A DNA stretch of 58,613 bases from a virus (Duplodnaviria; Caudoviricetes). Position numbers and translations under genes: made by a program. This document shows, piece after piece, positions 23,933 through 52,710 of this stretch; within the stretch, counting starts at the first letter, position 1; the number at the start of each line of letters is the position of its first letter. The notes under the pieces were generated by a model. The model made no database searches. It had not been told where the DNA came from and was given only the letters and a program-made list of their open reading frames with translations. The stretch lies in the IMG/VR virus record IMGVR_UViG_3300030102_005973, positions 1 to 58,613 of that record; one strand, written 5' to 3'.

Positions 23933-24850
23933 TTATTTCAACCACTTATTTTCTCCCCTTAGATTCATTAATAATCTGCCAGGATGAATATTACTCAAGC
24001 GTATTTTAGCGTTACGAAGTAGTGCAGTTTTATCTTTTCTAGCTCTATTAACTATGTATTCTTGAACTCCAAACTTGCTATTTAAAATTGCATACTTTAT
24101 ATAAGCATATATATACTCTTCAAACAATTTGTTTACGGTAATTAAAGAATCGTCGCCCCCTTCCATTCCGTCCGAGATATACTCTAAAATACATTGCTCA
24201 TTAGCCATGGTTGAATTAAAGTTTATAACTCCAGCTTTTTTGTCAATTGTAAAAGTTGGATTCATATTAGCAGTCTCAGTATTTAAACCATAACGAGCAC
24301 CTATATTCGTGTCATAAAAATCTTCATTAAAAGGCAGATTGTTGTTTTGTTGGTCTAAATTAGCTTGATTGAGATATATTGTATTTAAAGAACCATCTGT
24401 ACGTGCGGTATCAAGACTTGAAGTTTGTGTTTCAACATTGTCATCAGAGTCGTATGTAAACGAAGCAGTAGCTGTTTGGACGTAAGATAAAGCTGATTGT
24501 ACTTGAATATTTTCAACAAGTGGTCTTATAGTATTGTCTTTAAATAAAGATATTCTAATCCAGTTTACATAATCTGAAGGCAGAACAAATCTTAAATCTG
24601 AATATACAGTCAACTGTAAAGATTTAATTTCTTTAAAAGCGTCGTAGTTTAATTCTTGAATACCACGTTTAGCATGAAACAATATTTTAAATCTATTTAC
24701 GTTGTTTATCATCGAATGATTTCCCGAGTACATCAATAGAAAATTATTGACTATATCAGATAATGTTACAAATTGATAGGACCCCCAGTTTAAATTGGTT
24801 GGATTGGCACCATCATTTGTATAATATTTTTTTTGATCTATATATGACAT
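23933..24850 (-). CDS. Tail ring / head-tail adaptor-like structural protein
   Basis: FHAKRG.QEL.YD, LP.DYVNW.R, LEYISDG motifs; position after head genes. Confidence 0.6.
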   Translation of the reverse strand: MSYIDQKKYYTNDGANPTNLNWGSYQFVTLSDIVNNFLLMYSGNHSMINNVNRFKILFHAKRGIQELNYDAFKEIKSLQLTVYSDLRFVLPSDYVNWIRISLFKDNTIRPLVENIQVQSALSYVQTATASFTYDSDDNVETQTSSLDTARTDGSLNTIYLNQANLDQQNNNLPFNEDFYDTNIGARYGLNTETANMNPTFTIDKKAGVINFNSTMANEQCILEYISDGMEGGDDSLITVNKLFEEYIYAYIKYAILNSKFGVQEYIVNRARKDKTALLRNAKIRLSNIHPGRLLMNLRGENKWLK

Positions 24851-47088: not shown

Positions 47089-47311
47089 TAGTAAATGGTT
47101 CATCATGTATAAGCATAGTATAACCCGCGCGTTTGTCGTAGTATATCTCACTATCTTTCTCGATAGCTACAACTTCAGTACCTATTGCAACGATCCTTCC
47201 CTTCTTATAGCGAAGTTGGTTGGCGTCTTCAGCAGAAAGCAAAAGTCCCGATGAGGTTTTAAGCTCCTCATCAATAGTTTTTATTACTACATATTTACCG
47301 ATTGGTTTCAT
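47054..47311 (-). CDS. groES: Co-chaperonin GroES
   Basis: KPIG..V.I...T.SGLLL...G.IVAIG...II.E.DI; overlaps the groEL stop. Confidence 0.85.
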   Translation of the reverse strand: MKPIGKYVVIKTIDEELKTSSGLLLSAEDANQLRYKKGRIVAIGTEVVAIEKDSEIYYDKRAGYTMLIHDEPFTIIRESDIVVVV

Positions 47312-48900
47312 TGGCTATCATATGTACGCGCCATAGTTACAATGGCGTTGGTTGATAATATTGAAACTGCCACAGATACAGCATTTTGAAGGGCAGTACG
47401 TGTAACTTTAAGCGGGTCTATAATTCCCATCTCAATCATATCGCCGGTTTTCCCAGTTTTTACATCAAGCCCGTGGCCTGTTTTATCTAAGAAATCAGGC
47501 GAAAAATCACTTCCAGCGTTTTGCAGTATCTGAGTCATAGGCGCTTGCAGCGCCTCCATCATGATCGCGTAAGCGATCGATTTTTTATTTTGATATTTTA
47601 TATCCTCAGCGGCCTCCCATAGTGCAAGCCCACCACCTGGCAGGATACCCTCAAGTAGTGCTGAACGAACCGCGCATACCGCATCATCAACCCGATCATA
47701 TAGCTCTTTCTGTTCTAGGTCAGTGTTACCACCTACGTTTATTACACCTATTCCACCGGTTAGTGACGCTATTCTAGACATAATAAAATCTTTGTCAGCC
47801 TTTTTAGTAGTTATCTTATGTGCATCCCACAGTTCTTCAACTCTTTTGTCAATGTCATCTTGACGAACTTTGTCCTCATTTTTTAGAATTATAGTGCTAT
47901 CTTTCCCCACTATTACCTTTGATGCTCTACCGAGATCTTTGAAAGTCATAAGACTTAGGTCATCACCTGTACTTTCAGAAAAATAAGTAGCACCTACCGA
48001 AAGAGCGATGTCATGCATCAGCTCGTGGCGTTTGTAACCAAAATTGGGAGGTATAATGGTACAAAGTTTCAGATTGTTCTTCATGACGTTTGCCGCCAAC
48101 GTGTTTGTTACGTTTTGAGAACACGGTGCTACTATTAATAGTTTTTTGTTCTCAGCGATTATTGGCTTTAGAACATTCTCAATCGATAGAATATTATTTA
48201 TATCAGAGTCAGATACCAAGACATAGGCGTCCTCAAGTATACACTCATCCTTTTTGTGGTTGTTTATAAACAGGTGGCTTGAGTATCCGCGATCAACTTT
48301 TATACCCTGGGTAGTCTCAAATGTGGTATCAGAAGTTTGGCTTTTCTCAACCGTTACAATACCGTTCTTGCCAACTGACTTGTAAGTGTCCGCTATAATT
48401 TTCCCTATCTCACTGTCATTGTTTGATGATATGGTCGCCACATCCAAAAGCTTCTTCTCACTTACAGGCTTTGACTTTTTACGAAGTTTGTCAACCACCT
48501 TCTCAGTGACTTTGACTAGCTCTCTCAATATCTCAGTCTTGTTATCTTTTGGCCCGATCATCTGAGTACCATGATCGACAAGTGCCCTGGTAAGTACAAT
48601 AGCTGTTGTGGTGCCATCACCCGCAATACTAGCGGTTCGCTCCGCAGCCTCCTTCATCATTTGCACCGACAGGTTCTCAACTGGATCAAGAAGCTGGATG
48701 CTTTTAGCTACTGTTACACCGTCTTTGGTAACAGTAATCCCATGGGTGTGATTAGGTGACTCAATCAAAACAGTATTTCCCATTGGACCTAATGTACTGC
48801 CAACTGCGCTTGCTAATTTATTTATACCTGATGTAAGTTTGTCTCTGCCGTCTTTGCCAAAGTGCAGATCCTTTGGTGAATATCCTCCCGTTTCATTCAT
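47308..48900 (-). CDS. groEL: Chaperonin GroEL
   Basis: TLGP.G, TKDGVTVA, GDGTTT, DR.DDA, GI.PGGG, GIIDP.KV motifs. Confidence 0.95.
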   Translation of the reverse strand: MNETGGYSPKDLHFGKDGRDKLTSGINKLASAVGSTLGPMGNTVLIESPNHTHGITVTKDGVTVAKSIQLLDPVENLSVQMMKEAAERTASIAGDGTTTAIVLTRALVDHGTQMIGPKDNKTEILRELVKVTEKVVDKLRKKSKPVSEKKLLDVATISSNNDSEIGKIIADTYKSVGKNGIVTVEKSQTSDTTFETTQGIKVDRGYSSHLFINNHKKDECILEDAYVLVSDSDINNILSIENVLKPIIAENKKLLIVAPCSQNVTNTLAANVMKNNLKLCTIIPPNFGYKRHELMHDIALSVGATYFSESTGDDLSLMTFKDLGRASKVIVGKDSTIILKNEDKVRQDDIDKRVEELWDAHKITTKKADKDFIMSRIASLTGGIGVINVGGNTDLEQKELYDRVDDAVCAVRSALLEGILPGGGLALWEAAEDIKYQNKKSIAYAIMMEALQAPMTQILQNAGSDFSPDFLDKTGHGLDVKTGKTGDMIEMGIIDPLKVTRTALQNAVSVAVSILSTNAIVTMARTYDSQ

Positions 48901-49683: not shown

Positions 49684-50062
49684 CAAATTATTTAGATACA
49701 CGGAACCATTGTATTATACTACGTGTGTCAGGCAAACTGCACAAAAAAAAACTCAAAATTTTTTCGGGGGGTGGGGGTCGCATTGCGTCTCGCATCTCAG
49801 ATTTTTTGTCGTTTTATCTGCAACCTTCCCCTGCCAACCAAGGGTCGACCAGTACAGGATCAAACGTTTTACGTTTATTCCTCGCAAAGTTTAAGAAAAA
49901 ACGAACGCTCACTTCGTTCGCGTAATCCCTCCAGAAAGCAAATCAAAGTCTAATTAAAATAGGAAAAATCGAATCAAGGGATCCCTTGTTCCCTCCGTAG
50001 GGGATCCCATGTTCAGATTGGGAACAAAAACTATCCCCAACAAACAAATATTTTCATGAGCA

Positions 50063-50097
50063 TTTGATGATATTCTCATTATTATTTCATATATTTA
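50063..50097 (+). promoter_or_regulatory. Putative early promoter (TTTG ... TATATTTA)
   Basis: -33-like TTTG at 50063 and -7-like TATATTTA at 50090-50097, before the first + strand gene. Confidence 0.5.
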
Positions 50098-50101
50098 CAC
50101 C

Positions 50102-50491
50102 ATGAGAGACAAACAACATACTGAAATCAAACGTAACTCACTCACTCTCAGTGAGTTACCTAACTTAAACCCTATAAAAATGAAAGCAAAGTATTACTAC
50201 ATTGATTATTCAAGTGAAACCAAAACTTATGACGTCATAGATTGTACTGATCCAGTTGACCAACCAATTGTTGGAAGTTTTGCTTATGAGGAAAATGCAA
50301 TCAAATTCCACCAAAAATTAAGACGCAATGAAGTATGGAAAAGAATGATATCAAAGATGTCAACAGAAGAAATTCAAACAAGATGCATTTTAGTTACAGC
50401 GTCACAAAAACAAGGTTTAGGTGATTCGGAAGAAAACGATACTTTTTACAATTTGTTAAATCACGAATATCACCTTAGACTTGAAGATTAA
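50102..50491 (+). CDS. Early hypothetical protein (start may be MKAKYY at 50180)
   Basis: ORF track; its stop codon lies inside hammerhead stem I. Confidence 0.55.
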   Translation: MRDKQHTEIKRNSLTLSELPNLNPIKMKAKYYYIDYSSETKTYDVIDCTDPVDQPIVGSFAYEENAIKFHQKLRRNEVWKRMISKMSTEEIQTRCILVTASQKQGLGDSEENDTFYNLLNHEYHLRLED

Positions 50492-50539
50492 CTGATGAGG
50501 ATTCAATATCCGAAACTATCCGAAAGGATAGTCTTAATC
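50486..50539 (+). ncRNA. Hammerhead ribozyme, type I
   Basis: Stem I GATTAA/TTAATC; CTGATGA; stem II GGAT/ATCC; GAAA; stem III CTATCC-GAAA-GGATAG; GTC cleavage triplet at 50531-50533. Confidence 0.9.
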
Positions 50540-50556
50540 AACAAAAATTATTAATT

Positions 50557-51510
50557 ATGAATAATCAAGACAAAATTTACAAAAAGGTAAATGACATCGT
50601 CCTAAAGGGACTGAAAAAAGACGGAATGAAATGGTTCATGCCATGGAAATCGGGTGATGAAAATCAACCCATGAATTATAACTACAAAACCTACTATCGT
50701 GGTTTCAATGTGTTTATGCTTAACGCAGTTATGATGGAGCAAGGATACGAGCATAACCAATGGATCACACTAAAGAAATGTAAAGAGATTGGTGGATCGA
50801 TCAAGGATGGTCAGTTTGGCAAAACTACTGATGTGTTCAAATGGAACGTAGGTTATTATGATATCAAGAAAAAATGCTATGTGCCAACCAAGGATTATAA
50901 GAAGATCAATAAATCAGAGGAAATTGTAATTGATGGTAAAATCCAAAAACGTTACAGAACTACATTCTCTATTAGATATTGGCAAGTCTATAACATTGGG
51001 CAATGCAATGGCATTGAGCCAATCGTATTTGATCAGTCTGAGATCACCAAGGTGAATGAGCCAATCAAGGATGCTGATGATCTTGCGAAAAGCTATGTAG
51101 ATCGAGATGGTAAGCTAAGACTTGAACATCTACGTGATGGTGCATTTTACAATGTAGCTAAAGACATGGTCAATATGCCTAAACTTGAAACGTTTGTGGA
51201 CTCTGATTCGTACTACAAAGTGCTTTTCCATGAGCTAGCCCATTCAACTGGACACAATGATCGAATGGATCGTAAAAGTCTTACAGAAGTCTCCTATTGG
51301 GGTGATAACACCTATGCCAAGGAGGAACTGGTCGCTGAGATATCTGCGATGTACATCTCAGGGATGTTGGGACTTGATCCGAAAGACTCTGATCAGAATA
51401 GTGTGGCCTATATCAAAGGATGGTGTAAACACCTAAGCGATAAGCCGAAAGAATGCCTATACGCCATGCAACAAGCTACCAAAGTGGTTGCCTACATCCA
51501 AGGTAAATAA
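50557..51510 (+). CDS. ardC: ArdC-like antirestriction protein (ssDNA-binding domain plus zincin-like domain)
   Basis: W..PW, Y.G.N...L, W.T...., HELAHSTGH, YAKEELVAE, S.AYI.GW motifs. Confidence 0.85.
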   Translation: MNNQDKIYKKVNDIVLKGLKKDGMKWFMPWKSGDENQPMNYNYKTYYRGFNVFMLNAVMMEQGYEHNQWITLKKCKEIGGSIKDGQFGKTTDVFKWNVGYYDIKKKCYVPTKDYKKINKSEEIVIDGKIQKRYRTTFSIRYWQVYNIGQCNGIEPIVFDQSEITKVNEPIKDADDLAKSYVDRDGKLRLEHLRDGAFYNVAKDMVNMPKLETFVDSDSYYKVLFHELAHSTGHNDRMDRKSLTEVSYWGDNTYAKEELVAEISAMYISGMLGLDPKDSDQNSVAYIKGWCKHLSDKPKECLYAMQQATKVVAYIQGK

Positions 51511-51554
51511 ATCCGGGATTGGATCATGGAGGGGATCGTTTCCCCTCCCCGGAT
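51511..51554 (+). ncRNA. tRNA-like minihelix (acceptor-like stem plus T-arm-like hairpin)
   Basis: ATCCGGG/CCCGGAT closing stem stacked on GAGGGG-ATCGTTT-CCCCTC. Confidence 0.45.
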
Positions 51555-51597
51555 CGACAATATTGTCATTAACTAACAACAAAAATTATTAATTATT

Positions 51598-52083
51598 ATG
51601 AAAATCAATTTTATTAAGTATGAACATTCCCACGGTGGTAGGGAAAAGTATTTTCCAGTCGGTAAGAAGAAAGATGGAGTTGGCGATTGTGTAATAAGAG
51701 CAGTCGCACTATCATTGGAAATGGATTACATGGAGGCTTTTAAAGATTTAATGGATGTCGCAGTTGAGAAAGGGATTCCTTACGCTAATAGTCAAAGGGT
51801 TTATGAGTCTTACCTAGATAACAAAGGATGGACTAAAAAATCCTTGAAACAAGGTAAGAGTTGGTTACCAATGTGGAAACATAAAAGGTTTTTAGATGTT
51901 AACAAAAACTATATTTTTTATGTTAGAGTTGGATTTAGGACACATCTTACATCAGTTGTAAAGGGTATTAATAAAGACACATGGTTATGTCAAGAAAGCA
52001 TGGCATATGCAATGTATGAAAGTCCATGTTTAAAGGGTCATCCTGAAACGCTTGATTGCGAATGTAAAAACGAGAGATCATGA
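51598..52083 (+). CDS. Early protein with GDCVIRA motif
   Basis: DC..RA...H....G...DTW pattern, possibly a Cys/His peptidase-like fold. Confidence 0.55.
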   Translation: MKINFIKYEHSHGGREKYFPVGKKKDGVGDCVIRAVALSLEMDYMEAFKDLMDVAVEKGIPYANSQRVYESYLDNKGWTKKSLKQGKSWLPMWKHKRFLDVNKNYIFYVRVGFRTHLTSVVKGINKDTWLCQESMAYAMYESPCLKGHPETLDCECKNERS

Positions 52084-52328
52084 AACAGAGACTATTGAAA
52101 TTTATTTGGAACACCTTGTCTAAAATGGACAAGGGAAGGATATGGGATTATGAATCTGCACCATATTGTGGTCATCATCATCAGGGATTTGAAAACAAGT
52201 ACATCTCAGAAAGCTATCTCGAAGGTGAAGGTGGAGGATTCTCAAAAGTCTCATTGTTGGGTTACATCATTGAGATGGACAATGTCTTCCAGTCGGGAAC
52301 AATGTATCATTTAGTTAAAAAGAAGTAA
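52080..52328 (+). CDS. Early hypothetical protein
   Basis: ATGA-coupled to the upstream gene. Confidence 0.55.
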   Translation: MKQRLLKFIWNTLSKMDKGRIWDYESAPYCGHHHQGFENKYISESYLEGEGGGFSKVSLLGYIIEMDNVFQSGTMYHLVKKK

Positions 52329-52355
52329 CCGATGTCAGGGAGGAGTAATCCTCCC

Positions 52356-52406
52356 TCTGTCGATAGGTGTGTGCCTATCCTGATGAGATCAAAAGGTCGA
52401 AACAGA
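52356..52406 (+). ncRNA. Hammerhead ribozyme, type III
   Basis: Stem III TCTGT/ACAGA; GTC triplet at 52359-52361; stem I GATAGGT-GTGT-GCCTATC; CTGATGA; stem II GATC-AAAA-GGTC; GAAA. Confidence 0.9.
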
Positions 52407-52428: not shown

Positions 52429-52710
52429 ATGTTACATTCAAAATTCAGTTTATCATTTGATACAGATAATCAGATGGTATCGATTTACATTGGCTATGAA
52501 GATAAGTATGGAAAATCTTTCATTGCACCAACCTTTCATTTCAATGACTATGGTAAATTAATTATTCCTCCCAACACCGAGAGAGGATACAACAGGTCAA
52601 CCTTTAGCTATTTAGCAAGACACGTAAAAACTAAGGTAGCTGATTTCAAAAAACATATTGAAGATGAATATCTTCAAGAACTGATTATTAAGTTAGAACA
52701 ACAGATATGA
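52429..52710 (+). CDS. Early hypothetical protein
   Basis: Follows the shared leader. Confidence 0.6.
   Translation: MLHSKFSLSFDTDNQMVSIYIGYEDKYGKSFIAPTFHFNDYGKLIIPPNTERGYNRSTFSYLARHVKTKVADFKKHIEDEYLQELIIKLEQQI

Follow-up and report, generated by a model that had tools for sequence, protein, structure and literature searches.

A type I hammerhead motif laid over a stop codon upstream of ardC in a marine phage

Hammerhead ribozymes have been known beside phage anti-restriction genes since 2011. The main text of Perreault et al. (PMC3088659) describes prophage genes flanked by hammerheads, an ardA gene of A. tumefaciens flanked by three hammerheads that cleave both in vitro and in E. coli, and three Legionella strains in which a hammerhead immediately precedes ardA; of the 18 candidates that conformed to the consensus, 14 were active in vitro. 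Here we examine a comparable locus in a 58,613-nucleotide (nt) stretch of phage DNA, hereafter the window, which is IMG/VR record IMGVR_UViG_3300030102_005973 (Duplodnaviria; Caudoviricetes) at its full length. At positions 50486-50539 the window carries a type I hammerhead motif placed between an upstream open reading frame (ORF), whose stop codon it contains, and the anti-restriction gene ardC. We consider it quite likely, from sequence comparison, that this element is an active, essentially constitutive ribozyme through which an early polycistronic RNA would process itself.

Two other ribozyme systems invite comparison. In the haloviruses HF1 and HF2, the hammerhead HHphage lies 13 nt before the start codon of an early gene and the mapped 5′ end is at most 3 nt from the cut, a proximity that favors the view that the 5′ end of the messenger RNA (mRNA) is set by the ribozyme, as described in PMC3088659. 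The window resembles this system in that the ribozyme shortly precedes an early-gene start codon; it differs in that HHphage belongs to an archaeal virus, has a variant core that needs high salt, and sits at a transcript start and not between ORFs. Likewise, a 2026 account of fungal RNA viruses (PMC13725137) describes type I hammerheads with a long helix III that fill the intergenic untranslated region. These resemble the window element in cutting a few nt before the next ORF (7 nt in PtFV1) and in having no canonical loop-loop contact, as far as that account describes them, whereas the genomes are those of eukaryotic RNA viruses and the proposed role is cap-independent translation initiation rather than the processing of a bacterial operon. 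According to a 2019 review (PMC6765202), the role of bacterial and phage hammerheads still needs work. The words "stop codon" have no occurrence in the main text of PMC3088659, so the layout with a stop inside stem I is not described there, and a literature search that excluded supplementary files found neither stop-codon overlap of phage hammerheads nor tRNA-like elements alternating with ribozymes in phage operons.

The hammerhead motif and its relatives

The element at 50486-50539 (plus strand) has a complete core and perfect stems of 6, 4 and 7 base pairs (bp). An earlier note, made from the letters of the window, had proposed just this, a complete core of CTGATGA, GAAA and GTC with three perfect stems, and every coordinate agrees with the sequence. 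In standard hammerhead numbering, the parts follow one another as the 5′ strand of stem I, GAUUAA (50486-50491); the catalytic residues C3 to A9, CUGAUGA (50492-50498), of which only N7 varies among aligned relatives; the stem II hairpin GGAU-UCAAU-AUCC (50499-50511), 4 bp with the closing pair G10.1-C11.1; the core residues G12, A13 and A14, read from the sequence at 50512-50514; the stem III hairpin, ACTATCC/GGATAGT around a GAAA loop (50515-50532), 7 bp including A15.1-U16.1; C17 (50533), after which the motif places the predicted scission, 50533/50534; and the sequence UUAAUC (50534-50539), which pairs with the 5′ strand to complete the 6 bp of stem I. Compared with the core defined in the Methods of Perreault et al. 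(PMC3088659), the window has every residue in place: C3 U4 G5 A6 N7 G8 A9, G12 A13 A14, A15.1 at A50515, U16.1 at U50532, and H17 as C50533. The core-flanking pairs G50499-C50511, A50491-U50534 and A50515-U50532 are all matched, and all three stems are Watson-Crick throughout. Stem I is open and stems II and III are closed, hence the type I topology. The core and the three-way junction are the same as in the Rfam families Hammerhead_1 (RF00163) and Hammerhead_3 (RF00008).

Folding is consistent with this assignment. The minimum-energy fold of the 54-mer is the exact three-way junction (-12.9 kcal/mol, z -2.5), and the same junction is the minimum-energy fold of a nascent RNA covering 50450-50545. 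The latter fold also contains a possible extension of stem I, in which UUG (50481-50483) pairs with CAA (50542-50544) over an AA/AA internal loop.

How often such a motif arises by chance was gauged with a descriptor that specifies CUGANGA, GAA, a non-G at position 17 and three stems. Under this descriptor the real genome yields 50486-50539 plus one weak match with stems of 3/4/3 bp. When the whole genome was dinucleotide-shuffled 2752 times and both strands were scanned, there were 1081 matches with at least 3/3/3 bp, 54 with 4/4/4, 11 with 5/4/5 and 2 with the 6/4/7 bp of the element, or about 7e-4 per window. The motif is thus rare in one window, but on its own it would not decide the matter across a very large scan. 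A minus-strand "type II" match at 24134-24243, weak by the descriptor, was judged to be chance.

The relatives of the element are more decisive. With the window ArdC protein as query, 11 related viral loci and later 80 were collected, which we label with L-numbers; the 80 ardC loci comprise 289,338 nt and include some near-duplicates. The descriptor gave 24 matches on the gene strand of these loci and 0 on the opposite strand, against a mean of 0.9 for both strands in 20 shuffles. When the loci were scanned for all three hammerhead topologies, many copies emerged, every one on the ardC strand; "type III" descriptor matches in L041/L042 and L083 were weak and were judged to be chance. Because MAFFT alignments of hammerheads with long inserts in stem III were structurally inconsistent, a covariance model (R1) was seeded with a gapless alignment of three sequences, those of the window, L060 and L080. 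A search of 78 sources (355,675 nt) with R1 gave 24 matches at E<=1. The gene strand accounts for 22, and the two on the minus strand are weak and overlap plus-strand copies. Applied to the window's own genome R1 matches 50486-50539 only, and applied to the whole records of five relatives it adds one extra copy.

The stems of these relatives covary. In the 16 R1 matches with E<=1e-6, 99.6% of cells are paired and 14 of the 17 pairs show compensatory changes, counts that are biased in favor of the proposed fold because the alignment was fitted to R1. The covariation score is 0.857, as opposed to 0.194 in shuffles, of which 0 of 500 reach 0.857, and pairing falls to 32-38% of cells when the partners are slid by 1-3 columns. 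All 6 pairs of stem I and 5 of the 7 pairs of stem III covary, and the invariant pairs are 10.1-11.1, 15.1-16.1 and 15.2-16.2. Furthermore, an exact 19-mer (stem II and loop II with the flanking GA and GAAA) is present in 38 viral contigs. Counting the window, these provide 30 distinct contexts, in 29 of which the hammerhead is complete and in one of which it has decayed. Among the 29 complete copies, stems I and III vary freely while complementarity is kept, and CUGANGA, GAAA and the non-G at 17 are intact in the window and in 28 of 29 distinct complete copies, the exception being L098, with A instead of U at 16.1. A search of 50000-51600 against phage GenBank records with blastn gave no match. 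It is the family of related copies, and not the motif by itself, that decides that the hammerhead is genuine.

Flanking genes and the position of the stop codon

The upstream ORF (50102-50491, plus strand) encodes 129 amino acids (aa) and ends in a TAA at 50489-50491, within the 5′ strand of stem I, just as the earlier note had described. Its product has no Pfam or PHROG match. Its N-terminal 45-50 aa are 73% identical to an ORF of L001, and over its full length it is 30% identical across 126 aa (E 4e-7) to L002:2537-2788, similarities that identify it as a real gene; it is probably the first gene of a rightward early operon. The downstream gene (50557-51510, plus strand; 317 aa) was correctly named ardC in that note: its product matches the Pfam domains ArdcN (PF08401; 62.8 bits, 4.6e-17) and MPTase-PolyVal (PF18818; 104 bits, 7.7e-30) and has homologues in viral loci. 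By sequence, the protein would thus combine the ArdC N-terminal single-stranded-DNA-binding domain with a C-terminal zincin-like metallopeptidase domain, and the HExxH-containing block FHELAHSTGH is invariant in 8 ArdC homologues. With the cut at 50533/50534 and the ATG at 50557, the distance of 23 nt to ardC also holds, and the predicted leader after cleavage (50534-50556) consists of the 3′ strand of stem I, UUAAUC, and an A/U-rich stretch, with no Shine-Dalgarno sequence.

The placement of a stop codon in or near the ribozyme recurs. Among 17 type I copies near ardC, taken from the descriptor and paired with upstream ORFs of at least 35 aa, 13 have a stop that starts -2 to +15 nt from the hammerhead start; of the other 4, 2 have a stop 10 nt before the start and 2 have no such ORF. 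The embedded stop belongs to ardC itself in L071, L080 and L084. Likewise, in 26 of the 29 copies that share the 19-mer, an ORF of at least 42 codons ends either at the core UGA or at a stop whose first base is 3-9 nt before C3, which places it in the 5′ part (half) of stem I or up to three bases ahead of that stem, and the remaining 3 have the stop 10-21 nt upstream. An ORF of at least 40 codons begins 13-37 nt past the cut, again in 26 of 29. Three distant phages likewise have a type I hammerhead ahead of ardC, at a distance from the ATG of 15 nt in L038, 18 in L073 and 21 in L084.

The leaders themselves are of two kinds. Those of L100, L103, L106, L111, L112 and L128 have AGGAGG-like ribosome-binding sites, with stem II and loop II identical, while the window leader and many others are A-rich and have no AGGAGG-like box. 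This mixture suggests, as far as leader sequences can indicate, that the cassette circulates among phages of different hosts or host phyla. The cassette brings stops in two frames, UAA at the end of stem I and UGA in the core, so that an incoming ORF ends inside it by default.

Other modules in the early operon

The positions on either side of ardC are occupied by different elements in different phages. Directly after the ardC stop in the window is a tRNA-like mini-element (51511-51554, plus strand). It consists of an acceptor-like stem, a linker of 11 nt that includes UGG, and a T-arm-like hairpin whose loop reads AUCGUUU, and it is identical to L001:3914-3955. A palindrome or small hairpin, GACAATATTGTC (51556-51567, plus strand), follows it and recurs behind most family members. 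The element was recognized by eye and with a structural scan, which gave 29 gene-strand matches and 1 on the opposite strand that has no loop consensus. The family comprises about 17 distinct members of about 42 nt whose stems covary; they lie between early genes on the gene strand, adjoin or overlap stop codons as well, and are usually followed by a small GAC-N6-GTC hairpin. Members include, besides the copy in L001 just named, L001:2885-2925, L002:3961-4000, L003:6347-6387, L008:2-43, L008:837-877, L010:3874-3915, L010:4260-4303, L010:5096-5135, L032:2441-2485, L034:2447-2488, L038:307-351, L038:2433-2473 and L062:1268-1310. MAFFT alignments of these elements were structurally inconsistent.

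The element at 51511-51554 is tRNA-like and not a tRNA. It does not form a cloverleaf with D, anticodon and T arms, ARAGORN finds no tRNA in the window, and the Rfam tRNA model is silent on 51511-51554; for the family as a whole, neither Rfam nor ARAGORN nor the literature searched gave a match. The T-loop pattern GGTTCRAWTCC has only chance-level one-mismatch matches in the window and misses the variant loop of the real element. In L003, a 98-nt "tRNA-Trp" called by ARAGORN (L003:3906-4003) overlaps the tRNA-like element after ardC and is probably a T-arm artefact. These elements may be processing signals for RNase P or RNase Z.

It is informative to set the window beside its closest relatives. 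L001-L003, with ArdC proteins 75-77% identical to that of the window, and then L008 (55%) have no hammerhead before ardC; in its place is a tRNA-like element of about 42 nt, with a UGG linker of 10-12 nt and a UUCGAUU-type loop. L038, whose ArdC is 40% identical, is arranged like the window: its ardC is preceded by a type I hammerhead and followed by a tRNA-like element. Since the upstream ORF shares only its N-terminal 45-50 residues with L001, the exchange of modules came with a mosaic junction in that gene. Across 64 distinct ardC loci, the position before the ATG (element end 0-60 nt away) holds type I hammerheads in 4, type III in 2 (one weak), tRNA-like elements in 4 and none of these in 54; the position after the stop (element start within 45 nt) holds type I in 3, type III in 1, tRNA-like elements in 8 and none in 52.

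A second hammerhead, of type III, lies further along the window at 52356-52406 (plus strand), with a predicted cut after C52361. It occupies the next-but-one intergenic gap, which separates ORF 52080-52328 from ORF 52429-52710. Against RF00008 it scores 36.5 bits (gathering threshold 48.5; E 1.1e-6 in a small scan); it is near-identical in L001:4658-4708, and in the copy at L078:2459-2509 the changes in stem II are compensated. A hairpin, GGGAGG-AGUAAU-CCUCCC (52338-52355, plus strand), lies between this hammerhead and the stop at 52326-52328, and the L078 copy is likewise preceded by a GC hairpin. Of 6 type III copies, 5 lie 26-30 nt past the upstream stop. At L010:2788-2854 (plus strand), about 150 nt before ardC and ahead of a small ORF, there is a pistol ribozyme (RF02679, 67.5 bits), and L011 has the same.

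Decayed copies occur as well. L003:4584-4627 (plus strand; the same as L122) is a version of the window cassette with a CUAAUGA core and with stem II and loop II unchanged. It has lost 10 nt between the direct repeats TATCCGAAA, and with them the 5′ strand of stem III, and its stem I is unpaired. Its leader is kept, ahead of a gene other than ardC. At four further sites upstream of ardC (L016 ~1445-1480, L026 ~1450-1485, L043 ~1440-1475 and L074 ~1440-1480) there is a hairpin followed by GUC, which shares the 3′ strand of stem I and the leader with a full hammerhead elsewhere in the same phage and has neither CUGAUGA nor stem II; these may be remnants left by deletion of the core.

A different arrangement is seen in podovirus-like relatives (L039-L042, L045, L053, L054, L056 and L059), where about 40-70 nt before ardC there is a conserved box similar to ACACTATAGAAAC, with a GC hairpin behind it. 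The box appears to resemble phage promoters of the single-subunit (SP6/T7-type) class, and in these phages ardC seems to have its own promoter and no ribozyme.

As to the genome as a whole, the 58,613-bp record is complete or nearly complete. A primase-like gene with a BT4734-like N domain and DUF5906 spans the contig ends (57086-58612 and 3-986, plus strand) and covers positions 501-804 of phrog_28855; its continuity across the ends identifies the record as a permuted complete genome. Downstream of it, in the same operon, are an ERF recombinase, a PDDEXK nuclease and an SNF2 helicase. The phage also encodes a chaperonin of the Cpn60/GroEL family (47308-48900, minus strand; 530 aa; PF00118, 188.9 bits).

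Proposed processing, alternatives and known systems

The reading we favor is that the hammerhead forms part of the rightward early transcript of this marine phage of about 58.6 kb. Once the 3′ strand of stem I had been transcribed, the RNA would fold and cut itself after C50533. Hammerhead cleavage leaves a 2′,3′-cyclic phosphate on the upstream product and a 5′-OH on the downstream one, and by this established chemistry the two messages would differ at their new ends. The upstream message would retain its stop codon and extend about 42 nt further, through the ribozyme body with stems II and III, to a 2′,3′-cyclic phosphate; the ardC message would start with a 5′-OH and an unstructured, A/U-rich leader of 23 nt. 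The cut would thereby uncouple the upstream gene from ardC. The portable unit would consist of a stop codon in or next to stem I, the hammerhead, a leader of 13-37 nt and a start codon, and the type III hammerheads, nearby pistol ribozyme and tRNA-like mini-elements at the same intergenic positions of related phages would all serve to separate cistrons. Cleavage in vivo, co-transcription and any effects on stability or translation are what we infer from these arrangements.

Several observations weigh against this reading. The search of Rfam hammerhead models with Infernal that the earlier note had proposed as a check gave no match to the element at any threshold used: not at the gathering score, not at E<=10 on a 271-nt slice, and not with RF00163 over the whole genome at E<=10. 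At E<=10 the element draws only weak snoRNA-type matches, owing to its CUGAUGA box. The relative at L016:464-534 does pass RF00163 (40.6 bits, threshold 34); it is the one hammerhead reported at gathering score across 40 further loci, and none is reported in the first 8 loci, though L001, L003 and L009 carry copies. Our guess is that the models are biased towards other stem II sequences. In addition, when the element is folded within 161 nt of context, the minimum-energy fold retains stems II and III and loses stem I. Co-transcription is assumed from gene orientation and spacing, and a promoter could lie between the two genes; a scan for sigma-70 promoters was uninformative (14 matches, 11.5 expected), and, by a comparison of sequence words, no RNA run was found to contain the stretch; three metatranscriptome runs that share the sample have next to none of its words.

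The remaining point against it concerns tertiary structure. A contact between stems I and II, either loop-loop or pseudoknot, is needed for fast cleavage at low Mg2+. No conserved contact of this kind was found in the window and the close subfamily, so that activity at physiological Mg2+, and its speed, are presumed. In the window itself, the 5′ tail and loop II could form 5 bp (UUGAA/UUCAA; P ~0.05 taken alone), but no enrichment of such pairing is seen across the close subfamily (8 of 28 copies, 6.0 expected, P 0.24), and a pseudoknot between loop II and the tail was dropped as a family feature. Stem I is exactly 6 bp in 27 of the 28 parsed copies of the close subfamily, and an A directly follows it in 28 of 28 as listed, or in 27 if stem I of L097 is read as 6 bp; this fixed geometry hints at another tertiary contact.

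The alternative, put forward in the earlier note, is that translation gates the ribozyme, a ribosome terminating at the TAA in stem I covering the core and blocking folding, so that release of ardC would track translation of the upstream gene. A ribosome at this stop would have a footprint that covers CUGAUGA and part of stem II. The idea draws support from the position of the stop, which in 26 of 29 close relatives falls inside stem I, beside it or at the core UGA and which in 13 of the 17 type I copies around ardC is close to where the hammerhead begins, and from the use of several distinct stop positions, which makes the layout something other than a single inherited accident. Nevertheless, flush placement is expected from compaction alone, given that early genes of the window are packed with overlapping stops and starts (52080/52083, 52707/52710), and the cassette supplies UAA and UGA in two frames in any case. 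The layout is not specific to ribozyme folding either, in that tRNA-like elements hug stop codons too, and the type III copies stand well past the stop, behind a hairpin. Cleavage is also irreversible, and occlusion would merely delay it. Gene compaction and cassette-borne stops account for the stop-in-helix layout equally well, and we regard gating as unlikely. The wider proposition, that type I and type III hammerheads, pistol ribozymes and tRNA-like elements cut by RNase P or RNase Z are interchangeable stop-cleave-leader cassettes whose first helix is laid over the stop to sense upstream translation, strikes us as doubtful as well.

A further alternative is that the motif is weak or dead, kept as a stabilizing structure at the 3′ end or else decaying, and that host RNases separate the cistrons. 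The lack of a detectable tertiary contact would fit, the decayed copy in L003 demonstrates that such cassettes do die, and 4 of the 18 consensus candidates of Perreault et al. (PMC3088659) were inactive in vitro. This view is difficult to reconcile with catalytic residues that are intact in the window and 28 of 29 copies while the stems are free to vary, a pattern of selection on catalysis and not on a hairpin, or with the fixed length of stem I, and we think it decidedly unlikely. Still another possibility is suggested by the two same-strand hammerheads lying 1.8 kb apart: cuts at 50533/34 and 52361/62 could free a 1.8 kb RNA that an RtcB-type ligase would circularize or splice, and ends with 5′-OH and cyclic phosphate would suit RtcB. 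This is very improbable given that a tRNA-like element lies between the two ribozymes, that partner elements vary from phage to phage, that a screen of 26 window ORFs, out of the 49 with 100 aa or more and a number of shorter ones, revealed no ligase or kinase, and that Perreault et al. (PMC3088659) sought spliced or circular products from tandem phage hammerheads and detected none. Finally, a functionless chance match to the consensus, which the simplicity of the motif, its non-negligible expected number over a very large scan and the silence of Rfam might suggest, is scarcely credible in view of the family enrichment, strict strand bias, covariation and conserved gene layout, and could be revived only if the copies were assembly duplicates, which their differing stems I and III show they are not.

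The locus has several uses. Its ardC stands between a hammerhead and a tRNA-like element, and sister phages have exchanged hammerhead and tRNA-like module at the same site, which makes it a clean natural test bed; the dead L003 copy even bears CUAAUGA, the same core change that the earlier note had proposed as a mutant control. The layout rules (a stop at the core UGA, inside stem I or beside it, a cut well downstream and a leader of 13-37 nt) could aid the annotation of phage operons, where curated Rfam thresholds miss most of this subfamily, and could also help in designing ribozyme insulators. What deserves further study is the recurring placement of the stop in a helix and the swapping of modules.

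The comparison with known systems can now be drawn more closely. Plant mitochondrial t-elements, described in PMC1920247 as tRNA-like structures between coding regions that act as RNase P and RNase Z signals for forming mRNA ends, are the nearest analogue of the tRNA-like elements, being tRNA-like and placed between coding regions in the same manner; those described here differ in their setting, a phage or bacterium, in their length of about 42 nt and in having no anticodon arm. For the hammerhead, the closest counterparts are the ardA-associated ribozymes in the main text of Perreault et al. (PMC3088659). As in those systems, hammerheads separate early genes of a phage and share their strand, one of them directly before an anti-restriction gene, there are several ribozymes per transcript, and the proposed role is to convert long phage RNAs into gene-length mRNAs. 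The differences are that the anti-restriction gene of the window is ardC, a gene with no relationship to ardA, that the phage is marine, that the leaders are A-rich without a Shine-Dalgarno sequence, and that the hammerheads alternate with tRNA-like elements.

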